Assembly: GCA_042562855.1 (NCBI GenBank)
Contig: JBHPNE010000002.1
Location: 7,643-71,642, forward strand
Source: Elusimicrobiota bacterium
GTDB taxonomy: Bacteria > Elusimicrobiota > Endomicrobiia > Endomicrobiales > JAPLKN01
Reading direction: 5' to 3'
Length of the DNA stretch: 64,000 nt
Part shown: in pieces, positions 4,444 through 24,922 of the stretch
How positions within the stretch are numbered: the first letter of the stretch is position 1
Layout of the letters: each line of letters opens with the position of its first letter
The notes under the pieces: model-generated
Database searches by the model: none
The model's input: the letters and a program-made list of their open reading frames with translations, nothing else
Told to the model about the DNA's origin: nothing
Translations under genes and position numbers: made by a program

Positions 4444-6521
<2,078 letters not shown>

Positions 6522-7354: not shown

Positions 7355-10300
7355 ATGAGCAAAATAAAAAGAATTTTTGAAAAGGTGAGTGAAAGATACT
7401 TAAAAAAGCTATCCATTCCGGAACCTTTTGTCGAGGTTTTTGTAAATTTTAAAAAAGGGATTGCGGTTACTACAGCATTGGCATTTCTTTTCACTTCAGT
7501 ATTTGCGCAATCAATTTTTGCATTTACCGATACTAAAGACTTTTCAGATAAAAAAGTCCGCGAAACCTTAAACACGTTCACTATTCCTTATACGATAGGC
7601 AGGGTAACAGACGGAAAATATTATGGCAGCAAAAAAATTGTTATAAACATTCAAGATCTGCATTGCCATGCGGAAGTTCAGGGAAATATTAACAAAATAA
7701 TTGGTTTGTTGGACGATGCATACTCCATTTCAAAGGTGTATATAGAAGGTAGTAGCGGAGACCTCGACACCTCTTGGGTAAAAGCCATAAAAAATGAACA
7801 GTTAAGAAACAAAATAGTGGAAACATTCGTAGAATCCGGAAGGCTTACGGGTGCGGAGTACTATTCCATTCAAAAGAATAAACCAAAAATGCTTAAAGGT
7901 GTAGAAAACGAGAGAATTTATAAGAATAATGTGGTCCGTCTTGGTAAAATATTGGATCAACGCGAAGAAATAGCGGCTCAAATCCCCGCAGTAAAACAAG
8001 AGCTAAGTAGACTAAAAGATAAGTATTACAGCAGATATAATAAAAGGTTAGAGAAATTGCTTACTAGGTATGGAAATAATGAAATAAATACAGAAAAATT
8101 TTATAGGTTACTTGAAAAGTTGGCAAAAAAATCGAAGGTTGATTTTTATGAGTTTGATACAATTAAAAAACTTATTAGCTTAATGAAAGAGCAAAAGAGG
8201 TTAAAATATAAAATAATTAGCAAACAGTTGGCTTCTTATGTTAAACACTTAAAAGACAAGATGCCATACGCAACGTATAAGCTTTTGCTTGAAAAAACAA
8301 GTAATTTTTCAAAATTAGATGAAGTATACACCCACTTAAAAAAACTGTCCTATGCTTATAAAATCAACTTAAGCACAAAATATTCGGAACTAAATAAGTT
8401 TTTCGACTTCATTGATGCGAATCAAAAAATTAACCCAATAGACCTTGTTAGTGAAGAAAGAAAACTAATACAAAAAATCCATCAGAAAACATCTCAGAAT
8501 ATTGCGGAAGGTGAAATTGCCTTTATTTCAGATTTCTTCGCATACTTGGAGGAGTATTTAAATAACAAAATTTCAGCAAATGATTACGAATATTTTCAAA
8601 GAAACAGCAAAGATTTTAAAAAATTGTGGGCAAAATATGTATATTCAGAAAAAATTACAAATCTTGCTCCTTATTATGATTTGTTTGATGTTTTCTATAA
8701 GGTTAACATTGAAAGAAATAAATATTTTATCGAAAACACTCTGGGGAATATCCCGGTACTAAATAGTGGGATAAGTCCAGTTGCAGATATTAACCATATT
8801 GATGAAACATTAAAATCGTTAAAGAATGCCAAAGAAATAATTGTTTTGGTAACGGGTGGTTTCCATACTGAAGGATTGGAAAGATTGCTCAGCAGAAGGG
8901 AAGTTTCTTACCTTGTAATCACTCCGAATGTTACGAAGGATACAAAATTTGCTGACACTGTTTATAATAAGTTTGCAAAACAGCAAGCAAAACGGTTTGC
9001 TTCTCAAACGATGGCTTTAGAAGCCTATTCTAAAAGTTTAGCAACGGGTACCATGGACGAAATTAAACTTAAAGTAGTTCGCGACTTTGCGCAAGATCAG
9101 TTAAAAATTGCATTTAAAGGTAAAAAACCAGAAAAGATTGCCGAGGATATAAACAGCGTTTTTCAAAACAAGGAAAATAATTTGGAAGGAAGTTTTTCAT
9201 ATTTTCCGGAAAAATCATCAGAGAAAGGGAATAAGTATTATTTTGAATATAAGTATAAGGACAAAACTGTTTCTTTGCTTTTGTCGGCGGAAGATGAAAT
9301 AACGATATTTGATACAAAATTTCATTATTTTAAATATCTCTTAAATTCCAAAGAAATAGTAAAAAAAGAAGATGAAAAGGCTGTTAGTTGGGATTTAAAT
9401 AAAATAATGCAGTCTGCTCAAGCTAAGAATCTGGTCGATTTAATTAATGAATTAGTCGAATTGGAGGAAGAATCAGGGCAATATTTAACAGAGTTTAATA
9501 AATCCATAAAAGTAGTATTTATTGAGATGGTTAAAAACAAGATAAGAAGCCAACAAACTTTAGAAGACATTGCCGAGGATTTCGGTTTTTCAAGAGACGA
9601 TACCATTCAATTCAGAAAATCACTCGCGAGTACAGGATTAGCCTTCGCTACAAGACAAGAAGAGTCACTTACTTTAAAGTCAACTTATAGAAAATATAAA
9701 AGCCTTTACAATTTCTTTCATAGAAAGAAAAATCATTTACCCGAAGATTGGACTAACAGAGAAAAGTACGGGGATGAATATGTAAAACAGATGAAGAATG
9801 CGGAAATCTGGCTTGCGCCAATAGTTGAATACGCTAAAATCAGGCGTATTTCAAATGCTTGGAACGAGAAGAAAAAAGAGTTAATAAATGAATTTTTTGG
9901 TGGACATGAATGGAACGAAGATCAAGAAAAGAGAAAATATGCAAAAGGAGGAATTAAAGATATAAGTGAATCCATGGAAAAGGGATCAGTGATAGGTACT
10001 ACTTTAGGTATTATAATTGGTTTGACAATTCAAATAACTCTGTGGATGATTTTTAGCATAGAAAAAATGTCGGCATTGGGAGTAGTGACAATGTTGTACA
10101 TAGCCACACCTGTCATTTTTATTATTTTAGCATCATCTTTGGGAGCGTTTATAGGACATGCCGTTAGCCATAGAAAATATGACAAAGAATATGGAACTAA
10201 GACTAAAGCGGAAAAAGAAAAACTTGAAAGAGAGGGAAAAGAAGTCATCGAGGCACCACTGACAACTGATGTTACAACATTTGAATTGCTAGAGTTGTAT

Positions 10301-13300
10301 TTAAAAAAAGAAGCAAAGAAAGTCTTAAAGAGAGAATTAAAAGATAAGGAACTAGATCTAATTTATGACATAATATCCATTAATGCAAGAATGTATCCCG
10401 GTTATATTTCAAAAAACGATATGTTACAAATACTTGCTGAAGAGATTAAAATGATTATTAATAATTTTAATAATGTGTTTGGCAAGCTACCTTCCGAAAA
10501 AGAGTTGAGCTTATTTTTTGAAAATATAAAATTGAGCCCCGATATTCAAGAGACAGAATCGGAAATGAACAAGATAGTAGAAAAAATACTTAAAGTAAAT
10601 GAGATGTATGACAAATATTTCAATCGTGAACCTGATATCGAAGAATTAATGTTTATTATAGGCCAAATAAATAGCAAGAAAAATAAGGATGATATTATTG
10701 CTGGTATAGAAAAAATACTTGAAAGCATAAAAATAATAGTTAAAGAGTATACACATGAAAAAGAACTTACAAGAAACGAAATTATCTATATTTACAAAGA
10801 GGAGCTAAAAGCCAGCAAACCAAACAAGGAAAAAATATATTTGAAAATGTTGTTAATTCAAAATATATTTAGGCAAAATGTTAAAAGACTTCCCAACGCT
10901 AGAGAAATGAAGTTAATTTCATACAAAACAGAAAGTCAGGAGGAGATAATTGAAAGAATAGAACAAATATCTCTGGTAAGAAAATATGTAAAAGACGAAA
11001 TAAATTATTTACATTTAATGGAGCTAACAGAAATATTAGTAAACAATATCTTAGACATAAAAAAAGGTGACAGGAAGCGCAAGATAACTAAAATATTAAA
11101 AAACTTGAAAATACTTAAGGATGTTTATAGGGAAATATTTGGTTTGCCCGTAATTATACGGGATGCGGAATCTTACAGGAGACAAATCGGAGAAGAATTT
11201 AGTGAGCAAACGGTAAGAGAATATTTATTGAACGTAAAATCACAAAAAGATGAAATTAAAAGGGTTATGGAAATACTGGCAATATTATACGACGAGGGAA
11301 TTACCGGAGTAAAAAAACAAGAATTTATCGATGCGATTGCATACCAATACGGTGTAAATATTGCGAATCTGTTCAGAGAATCATTAATTGACGGCATGGA
11401 ATATATGATAGAATCCCCGGTTACAAATAATATTGATTTCAAAGTATCAGATGAGTTAAAAAGTAAATACGGCGATAAGAATAAAGACAATACCGAATTT
11501 ATATTGAAAAGGATAAGTGAAGCGATATATTTGAAACAAATAGATGACATGCTTGAGGATAAACTGGAGATCACAAGCAGTCTCATTTCACAAAGAGATG
11601 ACCATTTGACTTTTAAAATACGAATAAAAAATGAAGTTGACGAAAAAATGATTATATTTCCGATAAGTAAAAGTAAGAAAAAATATTTTGAAATTGAATA
11701 TCAGATGCTTAAAAAACTCGGGAGTCTGCTCGGTACATTGGAAGTATCGGCAGAAACAGAAGAAATATGCATGAGAAGCGGAAAGTTGGAAGCAATAATA
11801 ATGGAAGACAAAATCGATAAGGAGCAATATGAAACCTTACAAATGATATTAGAGTTTCACATAGAACGGGCCTTGCAAATAGCAGCCGGTAATAATGAAA
11901 TTAGCATATTTAATATTGATGAATATAAAGACAATTATGAAGATGTTTCAAAAGATGCTGCAGAAACATTAAAAAATATAATAATCGAGGCAAAAGAAAT
12001 TTTAGGAAGAAACCCTAGTCTTAAGGAAATATTGGGGATCTCAAAAATTTACTTGAAAAAGCCGCATATAACATCAATTGGGGTTTCTGTTAAAACGTAC
12101 GTAGGAGAGATAACGGAAAAGAGAGCAATAAGGCTAGCGTTCGCTGTGGGTATCGTTAGAGCTTGGCTGAATGATGGCGTTGATACAGATGAATTGTGCA
12201 AAACTTTATATTTAAAATTGATAGAAAACATAAAATCGGAGAAAGAAATATTTGACGATATTGAAAATATTGCAGTAGAATACTTTAGCAGTAACCCTAA
12301 TGTCGCTTTCAAAAATGAATTTAAGAAACAGTATAACTTGGAACAAAAAAGTAACGAGGAAATTATTATCGGTATATTGGAAGATGTATTTGGATCGGAA
12401 TATTTACCGTATAAAGCTGAGCTAATAAAGTTGCGAATGGCGGAAATAGAATTTGATAAAAGGGCGCCTCTGGGAAGGAATATTGTAGAAGTATGGATTA
12501 ATGGGTCACAAAAGGGAATGTTTGATGTAATGTCAAAATTAAAATATGCAAATTGGAGAAAGCTGGAATCAAGCCTCATTAGTATTTTAGATATAAATGC
12601 GGTAAAGGAAATAAAAGCTTTGGAAAAATATAATTCAACTTTCGTTGTCGATGAATCGAAGTACAAAAATTTATTAGACAGAGTTACAAGCTATTTGTCA
12701 AAATTCAAATTATCATATAGCAGCAATATTGATAGCGAAAAATCAAAAAAAATAATAGGAGATCTGGAAAACTTAAAACATGGCATCAAAAATGCACTAT
12801 TAGAATATTACAAAAACTTTGGCATAAATCGAGGAGATAATTTAAATAATGATGTATCTAAATGTTTGCGGACTGTAGTTTTACACGGTGAAGATCCGGA
12901 AGAGGTAGTTAAAAGGTTAGGTTTAAAAGTTTTAAGTAATATGGGGCTTGAAGGCGCACAAGGACAAGCACAGCAGGTGGAACTCACTCAACCAAAAACA
13001 ATTGAGGAAGCGGTTAAAGATTTTACTTCCCAAAATGGCAGTCAAAAAGAAATCAAGGCCCAAAATATTGCGGTAAAACTCGGGAAAAGGTATGAAAATG
13101 AAATTACTTTAGAAAAATTAAAAAACCGTGAAATATTTAAGACAATTAAAAATCTTGTGAAAGATGAGTTCTATAAAAGTGACGAAATGATAAGGTTGAT
13201 AGTACTATATGCGGCTCTATACAAGGCTCCTCGCACAGAGGCATTCAAGCTAGCATTCAGATCCAAAAAATTTGTTGATGGGCATAAAAACTTCAACGTA

Positions 13301-16300
13301 AAACAAAAAGGCAAACTGCTAGAAAAAACCAAAGAGATCCAGGAAAAAGGTTATAGTCTGAAAGTGGCACGTGGGCTTGCAATTATTGCAGCAATTGCAG
13401 CATTTGCAGTTACATTTGCAGTATTTGTTATACCGATTGCATTTATAAAATTAGTAATGAGTATGGTTACTGTGACCATAGCCTTTTTTGTGCCCCCGCT
13501 CCCATATTATAAAAAAATAAAAGGGATACATTTTGAAGAGAATTTAGAATTTCTTAAAACTGGAAAAGGCTTACTTCTTATGCAAGAGGATGGAAAAGAA
13601 AGCGCAGAATTAACTCTTGTAGAAAAGCTGAAAAAGAAATTTACTACCCCTAAAACTATAGATTTATCCACATTTGATTTTGATGCAATGGTTAAATTTG
13701 CAAACGAAAATAAAAAAAGTAATATGTCCTCGGATGTAATATTTGTATGCGTAATCCATGCGTCTATAGAAATTTATGGTCGTTACCAAAATAGTATCAA
13801 TGTACAATTAAAAGAAAAAATAAGTGAGAAAATTATTTACACTTCTTCAGGAGAAGACCTTAGAAAATTATTTAGTGAATTATTGAATTATAATCCTGAT
13901 ATTAAAGCTATGTCTGATTTAGAATTAAAAATAGATTCAAAAATAATTCGAGAATTTGTTAATAAAAGTATAGATGATGCCATAGAAAAACATGAACATA
14001 AAGGGTTGGTAATGCAAATAAAAGATGATATTTTAGAACAAATATCTTACAAGCAAAGAATTTTGGAACAAATTCTGGAAATAATACCCGATGAGCTAAA
14101 AAAAGGTATTACTGCAGAAAAAATACAGGAATCAGTTATTACTGATAATATTGATAATCAGTACAGGTTAAAAAACAACCTGCCCCCAACAATAGTTTTT
14201 AGCGGTGACTTATTCAAGGGATCGTTAAAAGAAACTCCTGACTATATTGCTTTCACTATTGATAAAGAATTTGTAGCAGTAAATACTGTTTTTGGAGAAT
14301 TTGGAAAAGGGGGATTAAGATATTATCCGCCTTCTTCAGAAGAATTTTATGACAGCAAGATTAAAGGAGAAGCTGTAAAACAAGTTTTTATAGAAGATAT
14401 TGATCTTGCAAATGCTATGGATTTAAAAAATATATTTGCAGATGTATTTTTCACTGGTGGGAAAACAATTATTTTAGCAAAACCTACCGTTAAAAAGGAG
14501 GAAGCATTAAGAACACATAAAGATGGAATCATTGAACGTTGGGCCGCTTCTTCAATAATGGCAGGTATGCTCTGCACGCATTACATAGCCGGTCCAGATA
14601 TGAATGCAGGTGACAATGATATGCAGAGGTTAGTTGAAATAGCAGATGCTGTTCAACGTGCTTTATATGAAATGGATCCTGAAAAATATGCCCACTTTAG
14701 AGAACCTTTAAGAGCCACAACTAGTACACCAGACGGATTTTCGCATATGAATTGGCAGGTAACAAGTACAACAGTGTTGTTTGCGCTTCTAACATTACTT
14801 CAGGATAAAAAGGTATGCGAAAAATATGATATTAAAAAAGACGAAAATGGAGATATCAGTATTATTATACAGGGCTTCGGAGATGTTGGAAGTGGTATAG
14901 TAAAAATACTGTATGATACTATAAGGTCCGAAAAAGAGATTATTAAAATTGACAATATCGAGTATGATGTTGATATTATTGAAAAAAATAGAATTTCTCC
15001 AAATCAAACAGAAATTAACGGAAGGAAATACAAAACAAAAAAAGTAAATGAAGATTACATACTACGTCCTGATTATGGAATAAAGGTTGTTGGATTGACT
15101 ACCAGTTGGATGAATGATGAGAATAATCCTGAAATTGGTGGTATATACAACGAAAATGGCTTAGATCCGGACGAATTGATACGGTTGAGAGAAAAAATAG
15201 AAAAATATGGTACAACATCGGTAAATCTTCATAAAGATTATAATGATAAAGAAGATACCGGTGTAACAGTAAGAGGGAGTAGCCGTGACGTGCTAACAAA
15301 GCCAGCCAACTTTTTAATTCCTGCAGCAGGGCCGTCGCAATTTACAAGCAGAGAATTAGAGCCTGACCCACAAGCTATAATAGACAACGGTTATGTTCTT
15401 GTTGAGGAGCTCGATGTAGATGGCGTAATTGAAGGAGCCAATGATTCTTTCAAGAAAGGTGTTGCGGAAATATTTCATCATGTTTTGCATAAGTTATTTT
15501 TGCCAGGTCCAATGTGTAATGCAGGCGGAGTACAGACATCTCAAGATGAATGGACGTACATTATTTTGATTGGATTGGAGGAAGTAATAAAAAATATGCT
15601 AAGTCTAAGAGAAATAACACGTTCAAAAATTACCACTTTAACCATTTATAATATACGAAGAATTTTAGAGGAGTTGAAAAAATCCGAATACAAAAAAACC
15701 CCATCAGATATTTTAGACGAATTTGTAAATTCTATTAGAGATCAAATGAAAAACATTGATGAATATGATCAGATTATTATTGATCGAATTACTAATACTA
15801 TTATTGATAAATTTCGTAATAGAAAAGATATTGCAAAAATAATTGCAGAATTTACTTATGCAAGAAGAAAAGCAATGAATAATATTGAAGTATCGGACGA
15901 AGCGATAGATGATATTATTCAAAATATTAAGCAAGGAGATCATTTTAAGGCCAGGTCATCAGCATATGAGCTTAGGCTATTGGATCTTAATAGACTATCG
16001 GCTAAGAAAAGATATGCATTAGTTATGAGATTAATAGGAATTGTAAGGGATATAGGATTATCGTATAAAATTCGCGGCGCAGTAGTTGACAGTTTATCTT
16101 CTATTGCAATAAACACTCCTGATACTATTGAGGGGCAAAGATTGTCTGATGCCATAAAGCAAAGTCTGAACTCATTAATTAATAATCCTAAATTCCTTAA
16201 TCTGTATCCATATATTTGGTCGACTAATCTTAGGATCAACCATTTTAAAGTTAAACATGATGAAAAAATTGAGCAGGGAAAACTGCCAAATGTAGAATCA

Positions 16301-19300
16301 TTAGGTTTTCTAAAAAAGCATGGAACATCTGGCTGGCGCAAAGGCTTAAAAGCTTCTTGGGAACAGGATTTAGCTTGGGAACAGGATCTAACAAATCTTG
16401 CTATTGAAATGAAGCTCGAAAAGAATTTTCTTAAAAGATCTCATAAAAGAGCGTTTATCATTGAAGTACAAAAAAAAGTAGAAAAATACTTCTATTCACT
16501 CAACAAAGATAGAAATATACAGAAAATAAAAGATGAAAAAGAACCTGGAATATTCAATACTCCTGTTCTCGCAACTTACAATCGAGAATTTAAAAATGAA
16601 ACAATGAGGTATGCATTGCGCCATGGGCTTTTGTCTAAAGTTCCTACAGTGGGGTATCTTCGTGAAAATATTGAGAAGTATAGAGAGCATTATGAAGCAT
16701 TTGATTATTCCGGTGATAGTGCAAGTGCATCACGGTTGACGGTTGAAAACATGAAAGCGTTGGAAATAGTGGTGGAGATGGCTGAGAATGATGAAATTGA
16801 TAATGATACAAAGGTAGATATTGGTTTTATGAATTGTTCAATGAAAGATGAAAAAAGGATAGTAGTGTATAGGTTTAAGGGAAAACACGTGATAGAAACT
16901 CAGAAATATGAATTAAACAGTGCAGGCGATAGCGTTGTGCAGATTGGGGAAATACTAGAAGTATACACTTTAGATAAGTTTAGAAATATTAACGACGCTG
17001 AGATTAAAGAAAAGTTAGTTCATTTGTACAACAATGGAGTATTGATGTATTACCTAGAAAAATTTGTAAAACTAGAAGGCAATGAAAACAATATTCAAAT
17101 TCTTAATAACATTAAGAGAGTGTTAGAAAAGTTCAAATGGTCTAAAGCCAAAGAAGGCTTTGAGCCTGGCGATGTTGCACTAGCATTTCATAGCCAAGGA
17201 TATAGAATAGGTAAAATATTTGGTGATGCTAATTTGTCACTTATTACAGACACTCGTCAAAAAAAGGACAAGTTGCCCTTTGTAAATGAATCGAGTATTA
17301 AAAAGGCCATTGAATTCTTTAAAGAGCCTAACAAATCCGAGCAAGAAGAAATAAGCAACTTTTTTGATAATTTCGAAGAAAATTATGGATATAAATGGGA
17401 CGAAGCCCTCGGCAGTACCATAGTTCAGCAAATTGCAGGTGCAGGGGAATATGTAAGCATTCCGTATGACCACTTTGTAAAAATATATCTTTGGGCAGCA
17501 TACAAAATAGCTCCGTATAAGGAAGACATAAGAGATAAATCGTTTGCCAAGGGGCATATACACTATACTCCGGATCAAATAAAGGAAGTAGATAACGATG
17601 TTGAAAAAAGTATTGCAAAAATTGAAAGTATAGATGATCTTGTTATGGACCTCATAATTTCTTTCGTTGACTATTCTCTGATTCCAGAAATTCAGAAAGA
17701 AGCTACAAAATTAGCGGAAAGCATTTCAAAAAACATTAAAGATGGAATGGAGTCCATACTTCATCTTAAACACAATATAGAGACAGTGCCAGGTGAAGGA
17801 TTGCCTTGGGTGCAAGATGAAGATAGTGAAAATCTAGAACAACTAAAACAAGGTATTTTTGATAAAATAATGAAAGCAGAGGAATCTTCTCTCAAACCAC
17901 ACAAACCATATTATGATGAAGATGAATCAAAAAAACAGGCAAAAGATCTTTCTGAGGCAATAATTAAAAAAGACACTGATGATATTCGTTTTTATGTGAA
18001 AAAAATAGTGTTAAGATATGCTGGAGCGGATTCTGAGCATTTTCAAAGTACCTATTTTGACATAGTCAGGTACTGCAAAAAACTTGCTTGGTATCTTGGA
18101 GAATTGAAAGAAATAGAGGAATATTCACCGTATTTTGAAGTGATAACAGTAGCAATGGTGCAGTCATATGAAATGATAATCCCAATTATTGAACAATCTA
18201 TCATAACATTAAACGAAGAAAAAAATGATAATTACTGGACTAAGGGAAATGCAAAGGCAATAACGGAAGGATTAGGGGGGGTTACAGAAGGAGTCAATAA
18301 TTTATTAACAGACTTTAATAAAAAATTTGTTACCTCAAATATGGTTAAAATTTGTAAGGATTTGAAAGGAAAAGCTGATAAACTCGAAAAAAGTACAAAG
18401 GAATTCTTGAAACACATGGATGCAGTGATTGAACTTATGGAACTTATTAAAATAGTGATAGTGGATGAAAAAAATGTTCCGTTTGATAAGCTTAAGCTTG
18501 GTGAGGATTTGAAAGGTAAGTATATCATGAAAGTTGGTTTGGTAGAGATTATATGGGGTACCGATAAGGATAAAGTCCTTGGCATGCTCCGTGAGTTTGT
18601 GACACATGATTCTCGTAAATATGTAAAGCATGAGTTAATTTATATTTTAATAGAATACATAGGAAATACATTTAAACTTGATGCAGCCTTTTTTAATCAT
18701 GATGATGTGAAAGCGTTTATTCCTGAGCTTGTGCGTAAAAAAATAATTAAAAATATCAAAGAGGGAGAAAAATGGTATAAACAGACAATACATGACCCGC
18801 TTATTGTGGAAATATTGGAAGAAAGTTATAAAATAAAAGGTACGGCAAATAGACATGCACTAAACAATTTAGTCGAAGGAATATTTCTAAATGATAAAGA
18901 TGCAATCATTTATGGTATCAGAGAGTTAACAGCGGACAACATAAAGAAATCTGAATCGTTTGAAGAAAAATATGGCGATGCAATACAGTTTTGTAATGAT
19001 TATATTTATTTTATGGGTAAATTGAAAGGCAGAGTTGAATTTGAATCACATTTTAAGGCAATAACAGTGGCTATGGCTCAGGCGTATAGAAACATAGCTT
19101 CAATTGCGACCGAAGCGATAAAAAAGTTGGAAGAAAATGAATATGAAGAGCAATCAGTTGCAGCAAACAGGAATGCGATTTTGAAAGTATTGGAAGAATT
19201 GGACAAGAATTCTAAGGAGCTTCTGACTGGATTTTCGCCTGAATATATTAATGATGAAATGGTTAAAATTAAGAAGGAACTTGAGAATGAAGTATGGCAG

Positions 19301-22300
19301 CTTATGGTGTCAGATATTCAAATTGATAATGAACTTAAAAGGTATGCGGAAAAGCTTAAATTTGATCCCGAAGAATTTATTTATCTCAAAGGGTTATATA
19401 AGCAATTTATAGAAAGCGTTGGGAAGAAGGAGGTTGCAAAGATATATCTCGGAGACAATTTCAAAAGTGCATCGCAAATGTCAGAAACAGAGAGGAGAAA
19501 ATGGTTTGGTCCCGAATATAATGATATTAAAAAAGATCATAAAAAAAATGTTAAAGCTGCCAAGACAGTAAATGTTATAGAAAAACGTATGAATGGAGGA
19601 ATTTGGACATCTGCTCTGGAAAAAATGGAATATTTAAAGAGAATATTGAACGATTTGTCTGATAGGGGAGGAAGGTTTACAAAAGATGGAAAATGTTTCA
19701 TTGGCCCAAAATCTACGGATCTTTTCTTTGATGTCGAAGGAGTTATCTATATTGATAGCGAAGGCAAGGAAGGATTGCGTACAGTAAAAGTAAATATATC
19801 AGAAGCAAGAATATTGCAGTTGCTAGAGTCAGTTGAGAGAAAAGAATATGCTAGTGTTTCCATACAACAATTGGCAAGTCAAAAAACAATAGATGCTATA
19901 AATGACCTATACGATACAATCTATTTGTACGACAGGATGGATGATAGGATCCCCAGTGATAAGAAGCGCGCTTATAAGGAAATACTGGAAGAATATGAAA
20001 TGTATAGGGAGCCGTTAATCCAGGGAACCCTTCCGACCATTGATCCCAAAACAAATAGATTATCAGAAAAATTTCTTGCACCCGGAGGACATGGATATTG
20101 GGCTTTTAAAGAGTTCTTAACCATTCTAGGGGTAGAAAAAGAGGAAGCTGAAAATATTATTGTTGTTATAGCTAATGAGGACGGGCTTAATAATTTATAC
20201 GATCAGAATTTAATAGGGTATATGAAACGCACTGACCTTCCGGTTATGTTACTCTCGACAACAAGAACAGCTTTAGATAATAAAGGAGGTTTATTTGGAA
20301 TATTAGAACGTATTCTTGCAATGCTAGAGGCAAAGGAAGCAGAATTATCAGGCAGAGATAAACTTGGAATGTTTTATAAAATGGGACTTATACCGGGTTT
20401 TGGAGAATTGGGCAAAGAACGATTCAATCTTAATACGTCATTGTTTAATGTTGAAAAACTTTCTCCGCTTCTGAAAGAGCTTGTTGATGATATAATTGGC
20501 AAAGAGCGGTTTTATGAAATTATAAAACCTCCATTATTGCAAAATATTAAAAAAGGAGAAGTTGGAAATCCTAATGATCCACCAAGAATTCAGATGGAGG
20601 GATTGTTGGCATCAGTTATTTTAGAACTTAACAGTTATTTTTTATTATTAGGAGATAGTCCAGAAGATAGTAGAGTAAAAAATTTGCTTAGAACAAAAGG
20701 AATATTAAGAAAAAATGATAAGGGGGAAGAGATTGTTCGTTTTGTTGAAGTTATCAATATAGACACTGAAGATAGGACAGATTTCTTTACTCCTATAAAA
20801 ACACCGATTGATTTTTGCTTACAATACAATAGTGATTTATTTGGAGTTAATGCAAAGACATGGAAATTAAAATATCAGAAAAAGGGTGCATTGCCTGCCT
20901 TTCAGCTACATCCTTTCTATAACAGTCTAGACCAAATGGAAATAGCATTTGGTAATACAAGTACAGTTGGTCTTAAAGCACTCACAATAAATGGCAAAGT
21001 ATATTTTCCTGACACAATATTGGAAGGAAATGTATTAATGGCGTGTTTTACCGATGAACCATTTGATTTAACGCTTCAAGAGAACAGAGAACAATTGATA
21101 GAAGTTTTTGATTTGGCACTTCAAGAGAACATGATAGAAGTTGGTGGAGGATCTGGGATAAGCGAGGTAGATGGAAAACTTAAATTAAAAAATATTGCGA
21201 TAACAATCGACAAAGATGGAAGAATTTCTGTTAATGGAATGGGTAAACTTTCTGAAGAAAAAATGCTGATTTTGCCCATAACAAAGAAAATTTCTGCAAG
21301 AATAATTAGATTGTTTGGAGGAGATCCCGCAAAGCATCAGAAAGTCTATAAAGCTTTGGCTTTCATTCTGGCACCTATAATAGAAACGGTTCTATTAATA
21401 TTTTATTACCTCCCATCTGTTTTTTCAAAATCTACTGAAGACCATCCAACGGGCCTTTCAAAATTCGCTGAAGACCATGACCCTGCGACACAAGAAGAGA
21501 GAGGTCAGCTTAAAAAAGGGGTAAAAGCTGTTGTAAAAACGGGCCTTCTTTTTGCATTTGCTGCAGGGATTTATTTCTTATCTTTATTCATATTGAACCC
21601 TTCATTAGCTTTGATAGCATCTAATTGGTTATCGAACGCTCTAGAAATATTAGTTTTGTTTGTTGTAGGATTAGTTGCGGGACACGCCGGAGTAAACATT
21701 GTAATTTGGAGGAAGCAGAAGCATTTAATTATTAAAAGAGATAATGACACTATAATACAGGTTGATTCTCCTGACGACGGAGCAAAATTCGCTGTTGATA
21801 AACTTGCGAGAACTATCAGGGAAAATGATATTATAGGCAAGGAAACAGTGGTAATGTTAGCTACTGGTGGTACTATGGAGCCGTTTTATAACGAACTTGT
21901 ACGCAGAAACAAATTGAGCTCAAAACATAAAAATTATCTTAATCTCTCTAACTTGATTATTTTTAATTTAGACGAATATGAAGGAATTGAAATTTTCAGA
22001 AATGAGATTTTTGAAAATTTAATAGAAGAAACAAATGTAAATCCTGATAATTTCTATTTCTGGTATGGTAAAAATCCGATAAAAGAACAAATAGAACGAA
22101 TGGAAAAACTGATTTCAAACTACGGCGGGATTGATTTTGCTTTCGTAGGTATAGGCGCAAACGGCCATGTAGGGAAAAATGAGCCTGGGACAAATCCGGA
22201 AGTTTCTGGAGCAGTTGTGATAAGTCCGCAAACAAGGCGTGACAACGCCAGGGCGTTTGATAATAAAGAAGAATTAGTCCCGGAAAAGTGGTTCGGTTTT

Positions 22301-24922
22301 GGCTTGGAGCAGATTTTTGCAGCCAAAGAAATTTATTTAATGGTATACGGTCATAGCAAAGCAGGGGCAATATTAAAAACTCTAAATGGGCCGGTTACGG
22401 ACAATGTCCCGGCAACCTACTTTAGAAATCATCCGAACATGCACTATGTTTTGGATAAAAAAGCTTCATCTTATCATTTAATATTTGAACAAGTGGTAAA
22501 AATGCTGGAGGATCAAAAAAAGACAAATGTAGGCATGTTATATGGCGGATCAATAAGGGGCATTATTGTAGGGTATCTAGAATCTCGTTGTCCAATAAAT
22601 GAAATTGCCCCGGATCTTGGAAAAGATTTTGGCATAGCTGTTTCAAAGCAATATGGGAAAGACGATTACCTAAATTCATCTGAAATTGAACATGCAAGAG
22701 ATTTGGCGAATCTTGGCGGTGCAAGAGTTGTTGTTGCTATGCCCTTGCCCGAAGGAATAAACAAGAGAAACTTTAAAGAGCATTCCCTAATAAATATGTG
22801 TGATACAACCGAGAAACTATTAGGGTTTCGTATTGTTGGCAAAGGAAGATCAAACGTGTATGCTACCGAAATCAAGACAAATAAAGGCAAAGTAGCGGTA
22901 TTTTTCTATAACAAAGCAAAAGTGGAACATGGTTTTGAGATAATGCATTGGATAACAGAAATGCCTGTTACGTTAGAGGTTTTGCATAGGTCCTTTAAAA
23001 ATTTTAACTTAAAAGTAATTGAAACTGATAGACCAATATCCTTGGAAGATTTTGATATCAGTAAAAATTTTGAAAATTCTATCATAGTGTTTAACAAAAT
23101 TGGAGACCTCAAAAAAGATAGAGTCAAAACTGGTTATGATATGACGCTAACAGAAAAAACCGATATATACGATTATTTTATTCTTCTAAATAATTTTGCA
23201 AACAGAAAGAAAGAAGAATTTACTGCTTCCGATCCTATTATTTCTGAAACTATAAATATTAACGAAAATATTGAAGAATTGGAATCTTCTTTATCGGAAG
23301 AAAGCCTGGATAACATGCAAAAAAGGAGTGTCGATACTATAGTGCTCAGGTCTTTGCCTGAACAATTATCATCAGAATGGTTAGAAAAATTGAGCAACGC
23401 AATAAATTTGGCCCATAACAAAAAATTGAAAGTGGTAATTGACTATACAGTCAATAAAAAGTTCACGCAAAATAACTACATGGAAAATTTTTCTGCCGAC
23501 ATGAAAGTTATTCTTAAAAAATCAAACGCGGACGGCGTAAGATTGGATTTCTCAAGCTTGAAGTTAGGTTTAGATAATTATCCAAGATTAGGAATGCTTG
23601 CTATTAAAAAATTCAAAAGCACCATAATAAAATTGAGAACCATAATAATTAAAACAAAACCGGGGGCAATAGTTGGTAGTATTTTGCCTGAGATTTTATT
23701 CCCTGAGACAATGAAGCCTAAGATTCCAATTAAAATCACTCCTGAATCTTCTAAGATGACTGATGGTGAAAAATTAGTGCGGAAGATATATCTTGAAGAT
23801 TTAGACAGGCATTATTTTGAAAAATACAAGAATAGTTATCTTGAAGAAACGGATTTGGAAATTTCGAAACTCTTTAAGAATCTTAATATTAAAAAGGTTG
23901 TAAGAGTTTTATTCGGAAACAATATTCCAGAAAATACATCCAATTCCTGGCTTGAAATCTGCTTAAATGACAACAAGGGCTTAAAAGTGCCTTTAGGCGG
24001 CTTTGGTGTTGATATCAAGGAATTAGAAACCAAATTGTCAAAAGATTTAATAAAGGATGTGGAGATTTTAGGATTGCCGGCTGAACTGGCCAAAGAGATT
24101 TTTGAGACATATGAAGCTCGTTCACTAATAAGCAATATAACTCAACTGTTTAAAAATAAGATTGAAAGCAGAAAAAATAGTCCTGATTATAGATTTCAAA
24201 AGGGAAGACACAGAGCTCTTAATATTAAGAAAAGATACATAGTGCCATACACAGGCAGTGAAAAAATAGCAACTATTGTTCAAGTTTTAAGTGAATATCT
24301 AAGCTTAGATGATGAAAATGTGGAATCGTGGTATAAGAAAAACGAAGCAGTATTGAAAGCATTATTAGAAAAGCATGATTTGAAAATCTTGAATAACTCT
24401 GCAGATGTGAAAAAACAATCACAGATTCATGAAGCAGCCGGATATTTGCTCGGATCCGCCGAAAGAGTTCTTGCTGAAGACCTGATAAAAAAGGAAAACT
24501 TTACAAAGAAGCACGCCGAGTTATACGCAATGGCGCACGTTAAAACTCTTTTACAACCTCATCTTATTCATGCTGATTCCATGAAGAGTGATTTTTCAGG
24601 TTTAAATCCTGAGACAGTACATAAAGCATCAAATTATTTTGATCAGTATAAAAAAGCGATGGCCCTGGCAAATGAAGCTATACGTTTACATGGCGAAAGC
24701 GGGAAATATACTGCTGAAGAAGTATACGATATTGCGGATGAAGCAATAAACCTATTGGCTGATTTACTTGAAAACACGACACCAGCAGGTCAAGCTGCGA
24801 CTACGCTTCAGGAGCTCCTTGATGTTTTTGGAGACAGAGAATCAGGATCCTTAGCTGAAAAAATCGGCAAAGAAGCCATGATCAGTATCGAAGCGGTGCA
24901 AAGCATAACCACTGCTGCATAA
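7355..24922 (+). CDS. Giant multidomain membrane protein (5,855 aa), function unknown
   Basis: Single open frame of 17,568 nt. GGAGG lies 6 nt upstream of ATG 7355, and a terminator lies about 25 nt after the TAA. No other frame in the same span stays open beyond ~205 codons. Contains TM segments and three enzyme-like domains (listed as sub-features). Confidence 0.85.
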   Translation: MSKIKRIFEKVSERYLKKLSIPEPFVEVFVNFKKGIAVTTALAFLFTSVFAQSIFAFTDTKDFSDKKVRETLNTFTIPYTIGRVTDGKYYGSKKIVINIQDLHCHAEVQGNINKIIGLLDDAYSISKVYIEGSSGDLDTSWVKAIKNEQLRNKIVETFVESGRLTGAEYYSIQKNKPKMLKGVENERIYKNNVVRLGKILDQREEIAAQIPAVKQELSRLKDKYYSRYNKRLEKLLTRYGNNEINTEKFYRLLEKLAKKSKVDFYEFDTIKKLISLMKEQKRLKYKIISKQLASYVKHLKDKMPYATYKLLLEKTSNFSKLDEVYTHLKKLSYAYKINLSTKYSELNKFFDFIDANQKINPIDLVSEERKLIQKIHQKTSQNIAEGEIAFISDFFAYLEEYLNNKISANDYEYFQRNSKDFKKLWAKYVYSEKITNLAPYYDLFDVFYKVNIERNKYFIENTLGNIPVLNSGISPVADINHIDETLKSLKNAKEIIVLVTGGFHTEGLERLLSRREVSYLVITPNVTKDTKFADTVYNKFAKQQAKRFASQTMALEAYSKSLATGTMDEIKLKVVRDFAQDQLKIAFKGKKPEKIAEDINSVFQNKENNLEGSFSYFPEKSSEKGNKYYFEYKYKDKTVSLLLSAEDEITIFDTKFHYFKYLLNSKEIVKKEDEKAVSWDLNKIMQSAQAKNLVDLINELVELEEESGQYLTEFNKSIKVVFIEMVKNKIRSQQTLEDIAEDFGFSRDDTIQFRKSLASTGLAFATRQEESLTLKSTYRKYKSLYNFFHRKKNHLPEDWTNREKYGDEYVKQMKNAEIWLAPIVEYAKIRRISNAWNEKKKELINEFFGGHEWNEDQEKRKYAKGGIKDISESMEKGSVIGTTLGIIIGLTIQITLWMIFSIEKMSALGVVTMLYIATPVIFIILASSLGAFIGHAVSHRKYDKEYGTKTKAEKEKLEREGKEVIEAPLTTDVTTFELLELYLKKEAKKVLKRELKDKELDLIYDIISINARMYPGYISKNDMLQILAEEIKMIINNFNNVFGKLPSEKELSLFFENIKLSPDIQETESEMNKIVEKILKVNEMYDKYFNREPDIEELMFIIGQINSKKNKDDIIAGIEKILESIKIIVKEYTHEKELTRNEIIYIYKEELKASKPNKEKIYLKMLLIQNIFRQNVKRLPNAREMKLISYKTESQEEIIERIEQISLVRKYVKDEINYLHLMELTEILVNNILDIKKGDRKRKITKILKNLKILKDVYREIFGLPVIIRDAESYRRQIGEEFSEQTVREYLLNVKSQKDEIKRVMEILAILYDEGITGVKKQEFIDAIAYQYGVNIANLFRESLIDGMEYMIESPVTNNIDFKVSDELKSKYGDKNKDNTEFILKRISEAIYLKQIDDMLEDKLEITSSLISQRDDHLTFKIRIKNEVDEKMIIFPISKSKKKYFEIEYQMLKKLGSLLGTLEVSAETEEICMRSGKLEAIIMEDKIDKEQYETLQMILEFHIERALQIAAGNNEISIFNIDEYKDNYEDVSKDAAETLKNIIIEAKEILGRNPSLKEILGISKIYLKKPHITSIGVSVKTYVGEITEKRAIRLAFAVGIVRAWLNDGVDTDELCKTLYLKLIENIKSEKEIFDDIENIAVEYFSSNPNVAFKNEFKKQYNLEQKSNEEIIIGILEDVFGSEYLPYKAELIKLRMAEIEFDKRAPLGRNIVEVWINGSQKGMFDVMSKLKYANWRKLESSLISILDINAVKEIKALEKYNSTFVVDESKYKNLLDRVTSYLSKFKLSYSSNIDSEKSKKIIGDLENLKHGIKNALLEYYKNFGINRGDNLNNDVSKCLRTVVLHGEDPEEVVKRLGLKVLSNMGLEGAQGQAQQVELTQPKTIEEAVKDFTSQNGSQKEIKAQNIAVKLGKRYENEITLEKLKNREIFKTIKNLVKDEFYKSDEMIRLIVLYAALYKAPRTEAFKLAFRSKKFVDGHKNFNVKQKGKLLEKTKEIQEKGYSLKVARGLAIIAAIAAFAVTFAVFVIPIAFIKLVMSMVTVTIAFFVPPLPYYKKIKGIHFEENLEFLKTGKGLLLMQEDGKESAELTLVEKLKKKFTTPKTIDLSTFDFDAMVKFANENKKSNMSSDVIFVCVIHASIEIYGRYQNSINVQLKEKISEKIIYTSSGEDLRKLFSELLNYNPDIKAMSDLELKIDSKIIREFVNKSIDDAIEKHEHKGLVMQIKDDILEQISYKQRILEQILEIIPDELKKGITAEKIQESVITDNIDNQYRLKNNLPPTIVFSGDLFKGSLKETPDYIAFTIDKEFVAVNTVFGEFGKGGLRYYPPSSEEFYDSKIKGEAVKQVFIEDIDLANAMDLKNIFADVFFTGGKTIILAKPTVKKEEALRTHKDGIIERWAASSIMAGMLCTHYIAGPDMNAGDNDMQRLVEIADAVQRALYEMDPEKYAHFREPLRATTSTPDGFSHMNWQVTSTTVLFALLTLLQDKKVCEKYDIKKDENGDISIIIQGFGDVGSGIVKILYDTIRSEKEIIKIDNIEYDVDIIEKNRISPNQTEINGRKYKTKKVNEDYILRPDYGIKVVGLTTSWMNDENNPEIGGIYNENGLDPDELIRLREKIEKYGTTSVNLHKDYNDKEDTGVTVRGSSRDVLTKPANFLIPAAGPSQFTSRELEPDPQAIIDNGYVLVEELDVDGVIEGANDSFKKGVAEIFHHVLHKLFLPGPMCNAGGVQTSQDEWTYIILIGLEEVIKNMLSLREITRSKITTLTIYNIRRILEELKKSEYKKTPSDILDEFVNSIRDQMKNIDEYDQIIIDRITNTIIDKFRNRKDIAKIIAEFTYARRKAMNNIEVSDEAIDDIIQNIKQGDHFKARSSAYELRLLDLNRLSAKKRYALVMRLIGIVRDIGLSYKIRGAVVDSLSSIAINTPDTIEGQRLSDAIKQSLNSLINNPKFLNLYPYIWSTNLRINHFKVKHDEKIEQGKLPNVESLGFLKKHGTSGWRKGLKASWEQDLAWEQDLTNLAIEMKLEKNFLKRSHKRAFIIEVQKKVEKYFYSLNKDRNIQKIKDEKEPGIFNTPVLATYNREFKNETMRYALRHGLLSKVPTVGYLRENIEKYREHYEAFDYSGDSASASRLTVENMKALEIVVEMAENDEIDNDTKVDIGFMNCSMKDEKRIVVYRFKGKHVIETQKYELNSAGDSVVQIGEILEVYTLDKFRNINDAEIKEKLVHLYNNGVLMYYLEKFVKLEGNENNIQILNNIKRVLEKFKWSKAKEGFEPGDVALAFHSQGYRIGKIFGDANLSLITDTRQKKDKLPFVNESSIKKAIEFFKEPNKSEQEEISNFFDNFEENYGYKWDEALGSTIVQQIAGAGEYVSIPYDHFVKIYLWAAYKIAPYKEDIRDKSFAKGHIHYTPDQIKEVDNDVEKSIAKIESIDDLVMDLIISFVDYSLIPEIQKEATKLAESISKNIKDGMESILHLKHNIETVPGEGLPWVQDEDSENLEQLKQGIFDKIMKAEESSLKPHKPYYDEDESKKQAKDLSEAIIKKDTDDIRFYVKKIVLRYAGADSEHFQSTYFDIVRYCKKLAWYLGELKEIEEYSPYFEVITVAMVQSYEMIIPIIEQSIITLNEEKNDNYWTKGNAKAITEGLGGVTEGVNNLLTDFNKKFVTSNMVKICKDLKGKADKLEKSTKEFLKHMDAVIELMELIKIVIVDEKNVPFDKLKLGEDLKGKYIMKVGLVEIIWGTDKDKVLGMLREFVTHDSRKYVKHELIYILIEYIGNTFKLDAAFFNHDDVKAFIPELVRKKIIKNIKEGEKWYKQTIHDPLIVEILEESYKIKGTANRHALNNLVEGIFLNDKDAIIYGIRELTADNIKKSESFEEKYGDAIQFCNDYIYFMGKLKGRVEFESHFKAITVAMAQAYRNIASIATEAIKKLEENEYEEQSVAANRNAILKVLEELDKNSKELLTGFSPEYINDEMVKIKKELENEVWQLMVSDIQIDNELKRYAEKLKFDPEEFIYLKGLYKQFIESVGKKEVAKIYLGDNFKSASQMSETERRKWFGPEYNDIKKDHKKNVKAAKTVNVIEKRMNGGIWTSALEKMEYLKRILNDLSDRGGRFTKDGKCFIGPKSTDLFFDVEGVIYIDSEGKEGLRTVKVNISEARILQLLESVERKEYASVSIQQLASQKTIDAINDLYDTIYLYDRMDDRIPSDKKRAYKEILEEYEMYREPLIQGTLPTIDPKTNRLSEKFLAPGGHGYWAFKEFLTILGVEKEEAENIIVVIANEDGLNNLYDQNLIGYMKRTDLPVMLLSTTRTALDNKGGLFGILERILAMLEAKEAELSGRDKLGMFYKMGLIPGFGELGKERFNLNTSLFNVEKLSPLLKELVDDIIGKERFYEIIKPPLLQNIKKGEVGNPNDPPRIQMEGLLASVILELNSYFLLLGDSPEDSRVKNLLRTKGILRKNDKGEEIVRFVEVINIDTEDRTDFFTPIKTPIDFCLQYNSDLFGVNAKTWKLKYQKKGALPAFQLHPFYNSLDQMEIAFGNTSTVGLKALTINGKVYFPDTILEGNVLMACFTDEPFDLTLQENREQLIEVFDLALQENMIEVGGGSGISEVDGKLKLKNIAITIDKDGRISVNGMGKLSEEKMLILPITKKISARIIRLFGGDPAKHQKVYKALAFILAPIIETVLLIFYYLPSVFSKSTEDHPTGLSKFAEDHDPATQEERGQLKKGVKAVVKTGLLFAFAAGIYFLSLFILNPSLALIASNWLSNALEILVLFVVGLVAGHAGVNIVIWRKQKHLIIKRDNDTIIQVDSPDDGAKFAVDKLARTIRENDIIGKETVVMLATGGTMEPFYNELVRRNKLSSKHKNYLNLSNLIIFNLDEYEGIEIFRNEIFENLIEETNVNPDNFYFWYGKNPIKEQIERMEKLISNYGGIDFAFVGIGANGHVGKNEPGTNPEVSGAVVISPQTRRDNARAFDNKEELVPEKWFGFGLEQIFAAKEIYLMVYGHSKAGAILKTLNGPVTDNVPATYFRNHPNMHYVLDKKASSYHLIFEQVVKMLEDQKKTNVGMLYGGSIRGIIVGYLESRCPINEIAPDLGKDFGIAVSKQYGKDDYLNSSEIEHARDLANLGGARVVVAMPLPEGINKRNFKEHSLINMCDTTEKLLGFRIVGKGRSNVYATEIKTNKGKVAVFFYNKAKVEHGFEIMHWITEMPVTLEVLHRSFKNFNLKVIETDRPISLEDFDISKNFENSIIVFNKIGDLKKDRVKTGYDMTLTEKTDIYDYFILLNNFANRKKEEFTASDPIISETININENIEELESSLSEESLDNMQKRSVDTIVLRSLPEQLSSEWLEKLSNAINLAHNKKLKVVIDYTVNKKFTQNNYMENFSADMKVILKKSNADGVRLDFSSLKLGLDNYPRLGMLAIKKFKSTIIKLRTIIIKTKPGAIVGSILPEILFPETMKPKIPIKITPESSKMTDGEKLVRKIYLEDLDRHYFEKYKNSYLEETDLEISKLFKNLNIKKVVRVLFGNNIPENTSNSWLEICLNDNKGLKVPLGGFGVDIKELETKLSKDLIKDVEILGLPAELAKEIFETYEARSLISNITQLFKNKIESRKNSPDYRFQKGRHRALNIKKRYIVPYTGSEKIATIVQVLSEYLSLDDENVESWYKKNEAVLKALLEKHDLKILNNSADVKKQSQIHEAAGYLLGSAERVLAEDLIKKENFTKKHAELYAMAHVKTLLQPHLIHADSMKSDFSGLNPETVHKASNYFDQYKKAMALANEAIRLHGESGKYTAEEVYDIADEAINLLADLLENTTPAGQAATTLQELLDVFGDRESGSLAEKIGKEAMISIEAVQSITTAA
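7600..8940 (+). other. Giant ORF sub-region: possible Tiki/ChaN/TraB-superfamily-like bilobed domain with a long helical insert
   Basis: VINIQDLHCHAEVQ...VYIEGSSG near 7640-7750 and IIVLVTGGFHTEGL near 8841-8880 resemble the H/E ... GxxH signature of that superfamily. Motif-level only. Confidence 0.25.
9800..10190 (+). other. Giant ORF membrane module copy 1
   Basis: AEIWLAPIVEY ... FFGGHEWNEDQEKRKYAKGG ... two hydrophobic helices (VIGTTLGIIIGLTIQITLWMIF; ALGVVTMLYIATPVIFIILASSLGAFIGHAV). Confidence 0.6.
13185..13550 (+). other. Giant ORF membrane module copy 2
   Basis: LIVLYAALYKAPRTE ... KFVDGHKNFNVKQKGKLLEK ... two hydrophobic helices (GLAIIAAIAAFAVTFAVFVIPIAFI; LVMSMVTVTIAFFVPPLPYY). 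Confidence 0.6.
14180..15700 (+). other. Giant ORF domain: Glu/Leu/Phe/Val-dehydrogenase-like (GDH-like)
   Basis: GKGGLRYYP; LANAMDLKNIFADVFFTGGKTIILAKP; IAGPDMNAGDNDM; IIIQGFGDVGSG; GIYNENGLDPDEL; LIPAAGPSQ; VIEGANDSF; LPGPMCNAGGVQTSQDEW. These are collinear with the canonical GDH motif order. Confidence 0.7.
17938..19303 (+). repeat. Giant ORF internal duplication of a ~150-aa helical module (copies ~17938-18385 and ~18857-19303)
   Basis: FEVITVAMVQSYEMI vs FKAITVAMAQAYRNI; KKDTDDIRFYVKKI vs LNDKDAIIYGIREL; NNLLTDFNKKFVTSNMVKICKDL vs KELLTGFSPEYINDEMVKIKKEL. Confidence 0.7.
19480..21250 (+). other. Giant ORF domain: UDP-sugar pyrophosphorylase-like (UDPGP family)
   Basis: KRMNGGIWTS (compare KLNGGLGTSMG); LAPGGHGYWAF (compare PPGHGD); VVIANEDGLNN (compare VSNIDNLG); TTRTALDNKGGLFG (compare KTRADVKGG); FNLNTSLF; IQMEGLLASV; RTDFFTPIKTPIDFCLQYNSDLF (compare RSRFLPVKTTSDLLLVMSNLY); LTINGKVYFPDTILEGNV C-terminal beta-helix-like tail. 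Confidence 0.72.
21340..21725 (+). other. Giant ORF membrane module copy 3
   Basis: ALAFILAPIIETVLLIFYYL ... KFAEDHDPATQEERGQLKKG ... hydrophobic helices (GLLFAFAAGIYFLSLFILNP; ALEILVLFVVGLVAGHAGVNIVIW). Confidence 0.6.
21765..22480 (+). other. Giant ORF domain: glucosamine-6-phosphate deaminase / 6-phosphogluconolactonase-like (NagB fold)
   Basis: VVMLATGGTMEPFYNEL; IIFNLDEY; FAFVGIGANGHVGKNEPG; RRDNARAF; IYLMVYGHSKAGAILKTLNGPV; VPATYFRNHPNMHYVLD. Collinear with E. coli NagB, with the Asp/His/Glu catalytic positions present. Confidence 0.8.

Follow-up and report, generated by a model that had tools for sequence, protein, structure and literature searches.

The question raised by the locus described here is why a single bacterial polypeptide should carry three domains that resemble enzymes of metabolism, a glutamate dehydrogenase (GDH), a uridylyltransferase of the UDPGP family and a deaminase of the NagB type, and whether these three belong together. 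The locus is the giant open reading frame (ORF) P0001, which occupies positions 7355..24922 (stop codon included) of a 64,000-nucleotide stretch of contig JBHPNE010000002.1 from an Elusimicrobiota bacterium (assembly GCA_042562855.1); the whole stretch is referred to as the window, and P0001 and all its features lie on the (+) strand. A preliminary description of this DNA had proposed that the three domains form a tethered amino-sugar/ammonia handling unit. The explanation favored here is a different one: P0001 is probably one draw from a combinatorial family of giant proteins with a conserved head, a variable body and a conserved tail, its enzyme cassettes having been acquired or retained independently and not as a dedicated amino-sugar/ammonia pathway. 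As judged from the sequences compared, this head-body-tail family has so far been seen mainly in Elusimicrobiota of the Endomicrobiales type.

A scan of P0001 against Pfam and NCBIfam returned exactly three enzyme families, ELFV dehydrogenase, UDPGP and NagB, the last also matching the structure of a stand-alone NagB (PDB 2bkv), so the earlier statement that three enzyme domains reside on one ORF of 5,855 codons was borne out. The protein starts with a hydrophobic segment (aa 36-56; 7460..7522), a Sec-type signal peptide or signal anchor, and continues into a conserved head (aa 57-600; 7523..9154). Next come membrane hairpin 1, assigned from hydropathy like the other membrane segments (helices aa 884-902 and 907-925, joined by a four-residue loop; 9986..10171), a block of ~1,080 residues, and hairpin 2 (helices aa 2008-2026 and 2028-2046; 13355..13507). 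The GDH-like cassette (~aa 2290-2760; 14222..15634) and the UDPGP-like cassette (aa 4044-4622; nt 19484-21220) follow, and behind them are found membrane module 3 (helix A, aa 4668-4686, and a hairpin, aa 4729-4747 and 4765-4783; 21344..21712), the NagB-like cassette (aa ~4800-5040; 21752..22474) and a C-terminal block of 815 residues (aa 5041-5855; 22475..24919). Membrane hairpins had been described as separating the enzyme domains; this holds for NagB, which lies past module 3, but the GDH- and UDPGP-like cassettes share one block between hairpins (aa 2052-4663) and are set apart by ~1,300 mostly helical residues.

The assignment to a family rests on the two ends of the protein. A search with the head in 5.8 billion proteins retrieved at least 100 other giants of 3.2-7.8 kaa that have this N-terminal region (aa 36-620) in common, with E values down to 1e-136, and those that bear a name are from Elusimicrobia, Endomicrobium, Endomicrobiales or Endomicrobiaceae. 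Invariant residues of the head follow the pattern IQDxH...EG...R...GGxH, and a signal-peptide-like segment precedes it in 87 of 101 family members, with textbook signal peptides at the same place in relatives; P0001 has both the segment and the head. At the other end, the family tail reads S-(V/I)-x-A-(V/I)-(R/K)-(S/A)-(I/M)-L-(A/S/G)-A-A-COOH (P0001-P0101, G000:C4, G000:C13), and P0001 itself terminates in ...AVQSITTAA, its last 13 codons covering 24881-24919. Two terminal alanines occur in 64 of the 101 head-bearing giants and in 2 of 647 (0.3%) ordinary ORFs of the genome to which P0001 belongs. The ssrA degradation tag ends in ...LAA, and by this resemblance the tail may be a signal for a protease, for sorting or for secretion.

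What lies between head and tail is a mosaic. The precomputed Pfam content of the 100 head-sharing giants differs from protein to protein and includes domains of glycolysis and gluconeogenesis (PFK, hexokinase, PGI, FBPase, TIM, PGK, iPGM, enolase, PPDK), of sugar activation and storage (PGM, NTP-transferases, glycogen phosphorylase, starch synthase, debranching enzyme, GH77), further metabolic domains (RpiB, the N-domain of PRPP-synthetase, NagB in P0055 and GDH in P0097) and non-metabolic ones (ABC1 kinases with M48 peptidase, phosphatases, AAA+ domains, HEAT repeats). Along the same lines, BLAST of P0001 against the giants of its own genome and of relatives gave a different set of partners for each block: the head matched nine giants at 28-44% identity, the UDPGP-like cassette eight, often with two copies per ORF, and the GDH region none. 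In the mechanism that is proposed, a Sec-type signal peptide would open the protein, the conserved head of ~550 residues would come next and a tail of the type ...(I/M)L(A/S/G)AA would close it; the body would represent a lineage-specific string of divergent metabolic-enzyme cassettes, with helical linkers between them and two-helix hairpins as tethers, and the three cassettes of P0001 would have been acquired or retained independently of one another.

That such an ORF might be an artefact, arising from chimeric assembly or from read-through across several genes, has to be considered, because the source assembly (G000; 1.12 Mb, 60% complete) is a metagenome-assembled genome of 54 contigs and no identical or near-identical giant was found among the 5.8 billion proteins. 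However, 5,855 codons run without a break through DNA of 31-34% G+C, a strong Shine-Dalgarno sequence, GGGGAGGA, is located 5 nt upstream of the ATG, a single frame takes in both the head at its beginning and the family tail at its last codons, and the same architecture recurs in more than 100 independent assemblies, which makes this explanation extremely improbable. Nor is P0001 the only giant in its genome. At least eight ORFs of 3,000-7,232 codons are present in the assembly and account for ~12% of its bases (contigs C4, C10, C11, C12, C13, C24 and C51); several of them fill entire contigs and are therefore probably even longer in reality.

Turning to the proposed unit, its model places all three domains at the cytoplasmic face, tethered by hairpins, where NagB would free NH3 and fructose-6-phosphate from glucosamine-6-phosphate, the dehydrogenase would fix the ammonia as glutamate, and the UDPGP-like enzyme would activate hexosamine-1-phosphate. 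The chemistry is coherent, and by established biochemistry all three activities need cytoplasmic cofactors. Against this stands the distribution of the domains. None of the 100 head-sharing giants repeats the GDH/UDPGP/NagB trio, as judged from their Pfam lists and from profiles built on the cassettes, and a homologue search with aa 2275-5060 in the collection of 5.8 billion proteins returned P0001 alone. Cassette combinations vary freely across ~150 related giants. No relative of the GDH cassette was found in 104 genomes of the order, and the closest relative of the NagB block, a giant of genome G001 (G001:C14), has neither a GDH nor a UDPGP cassette. A conserved domain order in homologous giants, as the preliminary description had anticipated, was consequently not found; the domains occur in random combinations, the very situation it had named as refuting the unit.

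Each cassette has been compared with its stand-alone counterparts. The NagB-like cassette is matched by TIGR00502 (E 7.4e-38) over positions 3-245 of 259, that is over the whole fold of ~240 residues, by NF002557 (E 6e-43), by PF01182 in a genome scan (30.5 bits, above its cut-off) and by Bacillus subtilis NagB (2bkv, E 7.5e-30). Homology to stand-alone NagB (2bkv, 1cd5, TIGR00502) is thus clear; the copy in P0001 differs in its position within a giant, directly past a membrane module, and with 130.3 bits it remains below the TIGR00502 equivalog cut-off of 236.9 bits. In the 2bkv alignment Asp 4873, His 4938, Glu 4943, Arg 4961 and Lys 5002 correspond to Asp 72, His 143, Glu 148, Arg 172 and Lys 208 of E. 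coli NagB, the catalytic and substrate-binding residues in the published E. coli and B. subtilis structures, and all five are kept. The NagB cassette of P0055 (aa 693-929) is degenerate, with threonine in place of Asp 72 and methionine in place of Glu 148, the NagB-like cassettes of the G001:C14 and G012:C21 giants are without the arginine, and the cassette of P0001 is the best preserved of the four that were compared.

This cassette appears to have a history of its own. Among the giants compared by BLAST, NagB and the C-terminal block are common only to P0001 and G001:C14, a 5,228-aa ORF of the same family, with 26% identity over ~1,000 residues; taken by itself, the C-terminal block reaches 34% identity with the corresponding end of the G001 protein. 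It would thus seem that the NagB-like cassette was inherited together with this block. The block gave no match to any family or PDB entry, and its AF2 model, computed from a two-sequence alignment, reached a pLDDT of 40, unusable for a structure search. What the model shows, at this low confidence, is a possible beta/alpha repeat near residues 258-400 (block numbering).

The GDH-like cassette is more divergent. Its NAD(P)-binding domain is recognized by PF00208 (47.1 bits, E 3.3e-12; cut-off 23.4 bits), and the substrate domain PF02812 stays below its threshold (15.9 versus 25.3 bits). The Rossmann motif QGFGDVG, of the form GxGxxG, is located at aa 2506. An alignment with 24 relatives of the cassette and with the GDH domain of the giant P0097, which is closer to the canonical enzyme, identified Lys 2318 (in GKGG), Lys 2358, Lys 2370 (in GGK, twelve residues behind Lys 2358) and Asp 2415 (in GPD) as the equivalents of Lys 89, Lys 113, Lys 125 and Asp 165 of Clostridium symbiosum GDH; of these, Lys 125 and Asp 165 are catalytic and Lys 89 and Lys 113 substrate-binding. 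The motifs EGAN and NAGGVxxS are retained as well. Compared with ELFV dehydrogenases (PF00208/PF02812; 1euz, 1b26), the three lysines, the aspartate, EGAN and NxGGV..S are collinear, but the cassette carries large inserts, has ATTS...PH in place of the canonical TGK...GGS..R segment, and is too divergent for sequence matches in the PDB, where the best hit of the GDH region had an E value of 0.014 and nothing informative was returned.

The lysines, the aspartate and these motifs are kept in most of the 24 relatives despite identities of 30-40%, a degree of conservation which argues for a working dehydrogenase. A search of 1.84 billion representative proteins yielded only 49 relatives of the cassette, nearly all of them parts of long proteins, and none of the 49 carries a UDPGP, PGM or NagB cassette. 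By its sequence, the GDH cassette of P0001 falls into a rare clade, with about 50 representatives, that is almost confined to such proteins. The GDH cassette of P0097 was considered as specific kin and rejected (BLAST E 0.004). With their catalytic residues in place, the NagB-like and dehydrogenase cassettes are probably still active on sugar phosphates and on amino acids and 2-oxo acids.

A different picture emerged for the UDPGP-like cassette, in which part of an active site has been altered. The cassette scores above the cut-off of PF01704 (32.5 bits, E 5e-8; cut-off 22 bits), and a profile of 12 giant-embedded copies, which defined the borders given above, showed the cassette to be of the eukaryotic UDP-glucose pyrophosphorylase (UGPase) type with a C-terminal beta-helix. 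The profile matched eukaryote-type UGPases (3gue, 1z90, 2oef, 3r2w, 2i5k) with E values between 1e-17 and 1e-14, the best being 3gue (E 9.3e-18), and the alignment covers both the catalytic core and the beta-helix. The motifs GPKS, PGGHG, NEDG, DxKGG, FNxN and TPIK are retained in P0001. The nucleotide loop, in which KLNGGLGT of the UGPases (GGLGT being the form in the PDB entries) aligns with NGG(L/I)G(T/S)S of the relatives' cassettes, reads NGGIWTS in P0001: its last glycine, conserved to more than 90% in an alignment of 11 cassette sequences, is replaced by Trp 4084. Other differences from the UGPases are a long insert between this loop and GPKS, the embedding in a giant and, in relatives, the pairing with a mutase cassette. 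The exchange may weaken or alter nucleotide binding, and since the loop is changed the UDPGP-like activity is, on sequence grounds, doubtful or altered. The catalytic residues identified in the NagB- and GDH-like cassettes, as described above, are kept.

In relatives the UDPGP cassettes have a regular neighbor. Thirteen copies were counted in the relatives' giants, often in tandem, and beside them stand complete PGM_PMM I-IV domains in which TASHNP, DGDADR, GEESAH and RPSGTEP are intact; UDPGP cassettes followed by complete PGM_PMM I-IV are found in giants of G005 (L010, G005:C15), G008 (L014, G008:C11) and G014 (L011, G014:C59). In the G005 giant a UGPase-like cassette stands on either side of the phosphohexomutase cassette. 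By its recurrence, the UGPase-mutase pair is a candidate UDP-sugar module of the family, and the UGPase-NagB pair does not recur. It is to this extent that the theme of amino sugars and sugar nucleotides raised earlier stands: local pathway segments exist in the family, relatives stringing UDPGP and complete PGM domains together in their giants, but no co-evolved NagB/GDH/UDPGP unit emerges.

The mutase has left a trace in P0001. The peptide HGTSGWRKG (aa 2989-2997; 16319..16345), noted before as phosphohexomutase-like and placed one base too early at 16318, matches the first motif (FGTSGWR) of the phosphohexomutase cassettes in relatives' giants. It is specific to the family and not a chance resemblance: among 628,772 residues of giant proteins GTxGWR is found only four times, each of the three instances outside P0001 being the first motif of a phosphohexomutase cassette in a relative, and the number expected by chance in P0001 is ~2e-4. 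No phosphohexomutase domain of P0001 was matched by Pfam or TIGR01455, and the four loops of alpha-D-phosphohexomutases (TASHNP, DxDxDR, GEESG, RxSGTEP), all present in the relatives' cassettes, are missing. A degenerate mutase downstream of the motif was considered and rejected; a hidden Markov model built on three relatives scored only the 16-residue motif (-3.4 bits), and hhalign gave a probability of 4.8%. Because no mutase domain follows it, HGTSGWRKG is probably the vestige of a lost phosphohexomutase cassette. The UGPase-like cassette would then derive from a clade that elsewhere adjoins phosphohexomutase cassettes, with only the first mutase motif surviving in P0001. For a unit that is to activate hexosamine-1-phosphate, there is neither a mutase domain to supply the hexose-1-phosphate nor an unaltered glycine loop.

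These observations also bear on the idea that the cassettes are pseudo-enzymes, ligand-binding or structural modules of a giant surface, adhesion or scaffold protein that persist because of their fold or their capacity to bind sugars and nucleotides. Every cassette has diverged far from its housekeeping counterparts, the dehydrogenase barely matching canonical GDH; the UDPGP loop has its glycine-to-tryptophan exchange, the NagB-like cassettes of other giants have lost catalytic residues, and the predicted extracytoplasmic location discussed below would offer no cofactors. Yet the giant-specific GDH clade, at identities of only 30-40%, has conserved the three lysines, the aspartate and the Rossmann motif, the five NagB residues persist in P0001, and the PGM cassettes of relatives keep their serine, magnesium, sugar and phosphate loops. 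Without catalysis this conservation would be difficult to account for, and the pseudo-enzyme explanation is accordingly regarded as unlikely.

The location of the cassettes relative to the membrane provides a further argument for displayed cassettes as opposed to a cytoplasmic assembly. The N-terminus has a lysine/arginine-rich n-region followed by a hydrophobic core of 19-21 residues, ending in ...VFAQSIFA. Between this segment and the block with the GDH- and UDPGP-like cassettes there are four clear helices, which form two hairpins with loops of 1-4 residues; a two-helix hairpin is also the element that follows the head in giants of G008, G032 and G014. Since the number of helices is even, the two cassettes are probably on the side of the head, and outside the cytoplasm if the signal peptide works. 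Several proteins with a GDH cassette contain a signal peptide and no further membrane helix, and in P0097 the GDH domain directly follows the head with no helix between them; both layouts agree with this count. In the proposed mechanism the dehydrogenase and UGPase cassettes would face the trans side of the cytoplasmic membrane, with the hairpins as tethers, and would not be part of a cytoplasmic metabolon; as far as can be predicted from the protein sequence, the trans side is most likely their location. The earlier assumption that all domains are cytoplasmic is difficult to reconcile with these features for GDH and UDPGP.

Several points weigh against the favored explanation. The topology was derived with a crude hydropathy script. 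Both hairpins are flanked by lysine- and arginine-rich stretches, which would be cytoplasmic under the positive-inside rule, as the cytoplasmic unit demands; the signal is weak, the whole protein consisting of lysine to 11%. Module 3 has three hydrophobic helices and would put NagB on the side opposite to the other two cassettes, itself a difficulty for the cytoplasmic unit. The side of NagB is nevertheless uncertain, because the helices of modules 1 and 2 that are equivalent to helix A are not hydrophobic and the orthologous module of G001 consists of a hairpin only, such that helix A may or may not span the membrane. Enzymes that depend on NAD(P), UTP or sugar phosphates are without obvious substrates outside the cytoplasm. 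The assignment of a fold to the head, described below, is not significant. Finally, glmS, glmM, and stand-alone gdh and nagB were not found in the genome to which P0001 belongs, and a supplying role of the cassettes in this organism is possible; as this genome is 60% complete, the absence is not decisive.

An inventory of stand-alone genes had been suggested as a check on the unit. Next to the missing genes just listed, the same genome has a canonical glmU and a mutase of the PGM/PMM type; the relatives G001, G005, G008 and G014 all possess canonical glmS, glmM and glmU, and G001 and G014 a stand-alone gdh. Taken together with the unique trio, the freely varying cassettes and the predicted trans location, these genes make the cytoplasmic amino-sugar/ammonia unit quite improbable, its coherent chemistry and the intact NagB and GDH residues notwithstanding.

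If the cassettes are both active and exported, a more far-reaching possibility opens up, to which only a minor probability is given. The family may then represent a secreted or surface-exposed multi-enzyme system, in which the Sec route would export catalytically active cassettes that depend on NAD(P), UTP and sugar phosphates and that hairpins would tether, the esterase/TIKI-like head and the ...LAAA tail serving as processing, sorting or degradation signals. Such a system might use metabolites from a host or prey cell, or operate in a periplasm containing phosphorylated sugars, and UDP-sugars and hexosamine phosphates could thereby become forms that the bacterium imports.

Among described systems, the Archaeovorin-type giant proteins of Omnitrophota come closest. 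According to the relevant passages of two preprints (bioRxiv 10.1101/2023.11.21.568195, West-Roberts et al. 2023; bioRxiv 10.64898/2026.06.07.730766, Nielsen & Lui 2026), these are membrane-associated, many with a signal peptide and helices, and embed TIM, PGI, FBPase, PGM/PMM, PPDK, starch synthase and HEAT repeats; their metabolic domains are predicted to be extracytoplasmic by DeepTMHMM, the same contradiction as met here, and the authors mention that Elusimicrobiota also carry large genes. Elusimicrobiota are likewise known to be rich in huge proteins, which have been left uncharacterized in the literature (PMC11573180). With the Archaeovorins, P0001 shares membrane helices and embedded, divergent domains of sugar metabolism. 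These proteins belong to another phylum, exceed 30 kaa compared with 5.9 kaa for P0001, and contain SecA_DEAD, glycosyltransferase, NUDIX and peptidase families that are absent from P0001 (Pfam, E <= 0.1); the conserved head and the ...LAAA tail are not mentioned in the keyword-matched passages of either paper. A keyword match for glutamate dehydrogenase, uridylyltransferase or deaminase was not obtained in the text of West-Roberts et al. (10.1101/2023.11.21.568195), and in the literature searched by keyword no description of the head-body-tail family was found. By analogy, P0001 can be viewed as a variant of the multi-enzyme membrane giants known from Omnitrophota.

The family thus gives the giants of Elusimicrobiota a concrete anatomy: signal peptide, head, swappable cassettes between hairpins, and a conserved tail. 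With ORFs of at least 3,000 codons making up ~12% of the assembly, the investment in such proteins is large. For annotation it follows that embedded NagB, GDH, UGPase, PGM and comparable domains should not be counted as housekeeping pathway steps in metabolic reconstructions. The combination of intact catalytic residues with a signal peptide makes the export of cofactor-dependent enzymes of central metabolism testable, and the Omnitrophota giants pose the same question.

As to the head, a search of the PDB by sequence gave nothing informative. Its AF2 model (11-sequence alignment, pLDDT 81.6) shows an alpha/beta core split by a helical insert of ~280 residues, and the best Foldseek matches were EreC, BcR135, ChaN and HopBA1, with E values of 0.24-2.5 that are not significant. 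Proteins of the erythromycin esterase/ChaN/TIKI/TraB group (EreC 6xcs, 6xcq; BcR135 3b55; ChaN 2g5g) resemble the head in a His/Glu cluster near its start, IQDLHCHAE...EG, and a GGFH motif near its end, both invariant in the head; they differ by the helical insert that splits the core in the model. At TM-scores of ~0.2 the likeness is a lead and not a demonstrated membership, and from the model the head is possibly of the erythromycin-esterase/ChaN/TIKI type.

Two minor features may be added. Just upstream of P0001 lies a gene for a 179-aa protein (6748-7287) with hydrophobic segments at its N- and C-termini and no Pfam match; it was considered as a conserved partner of the giants and rejected, no counterpart being present beside the other giants examined. 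P0001 contains no HExxH motif. In three relatives this motif (HELTH, HEARH and HEYRH) is located 100-150 residues past the first hairpin, in giants of G008 (L014, ~aa 840), G032 (L012, ~aa 817) and G014 (L011, ~aa 823), where it may mark a zinc-protease-like domain.

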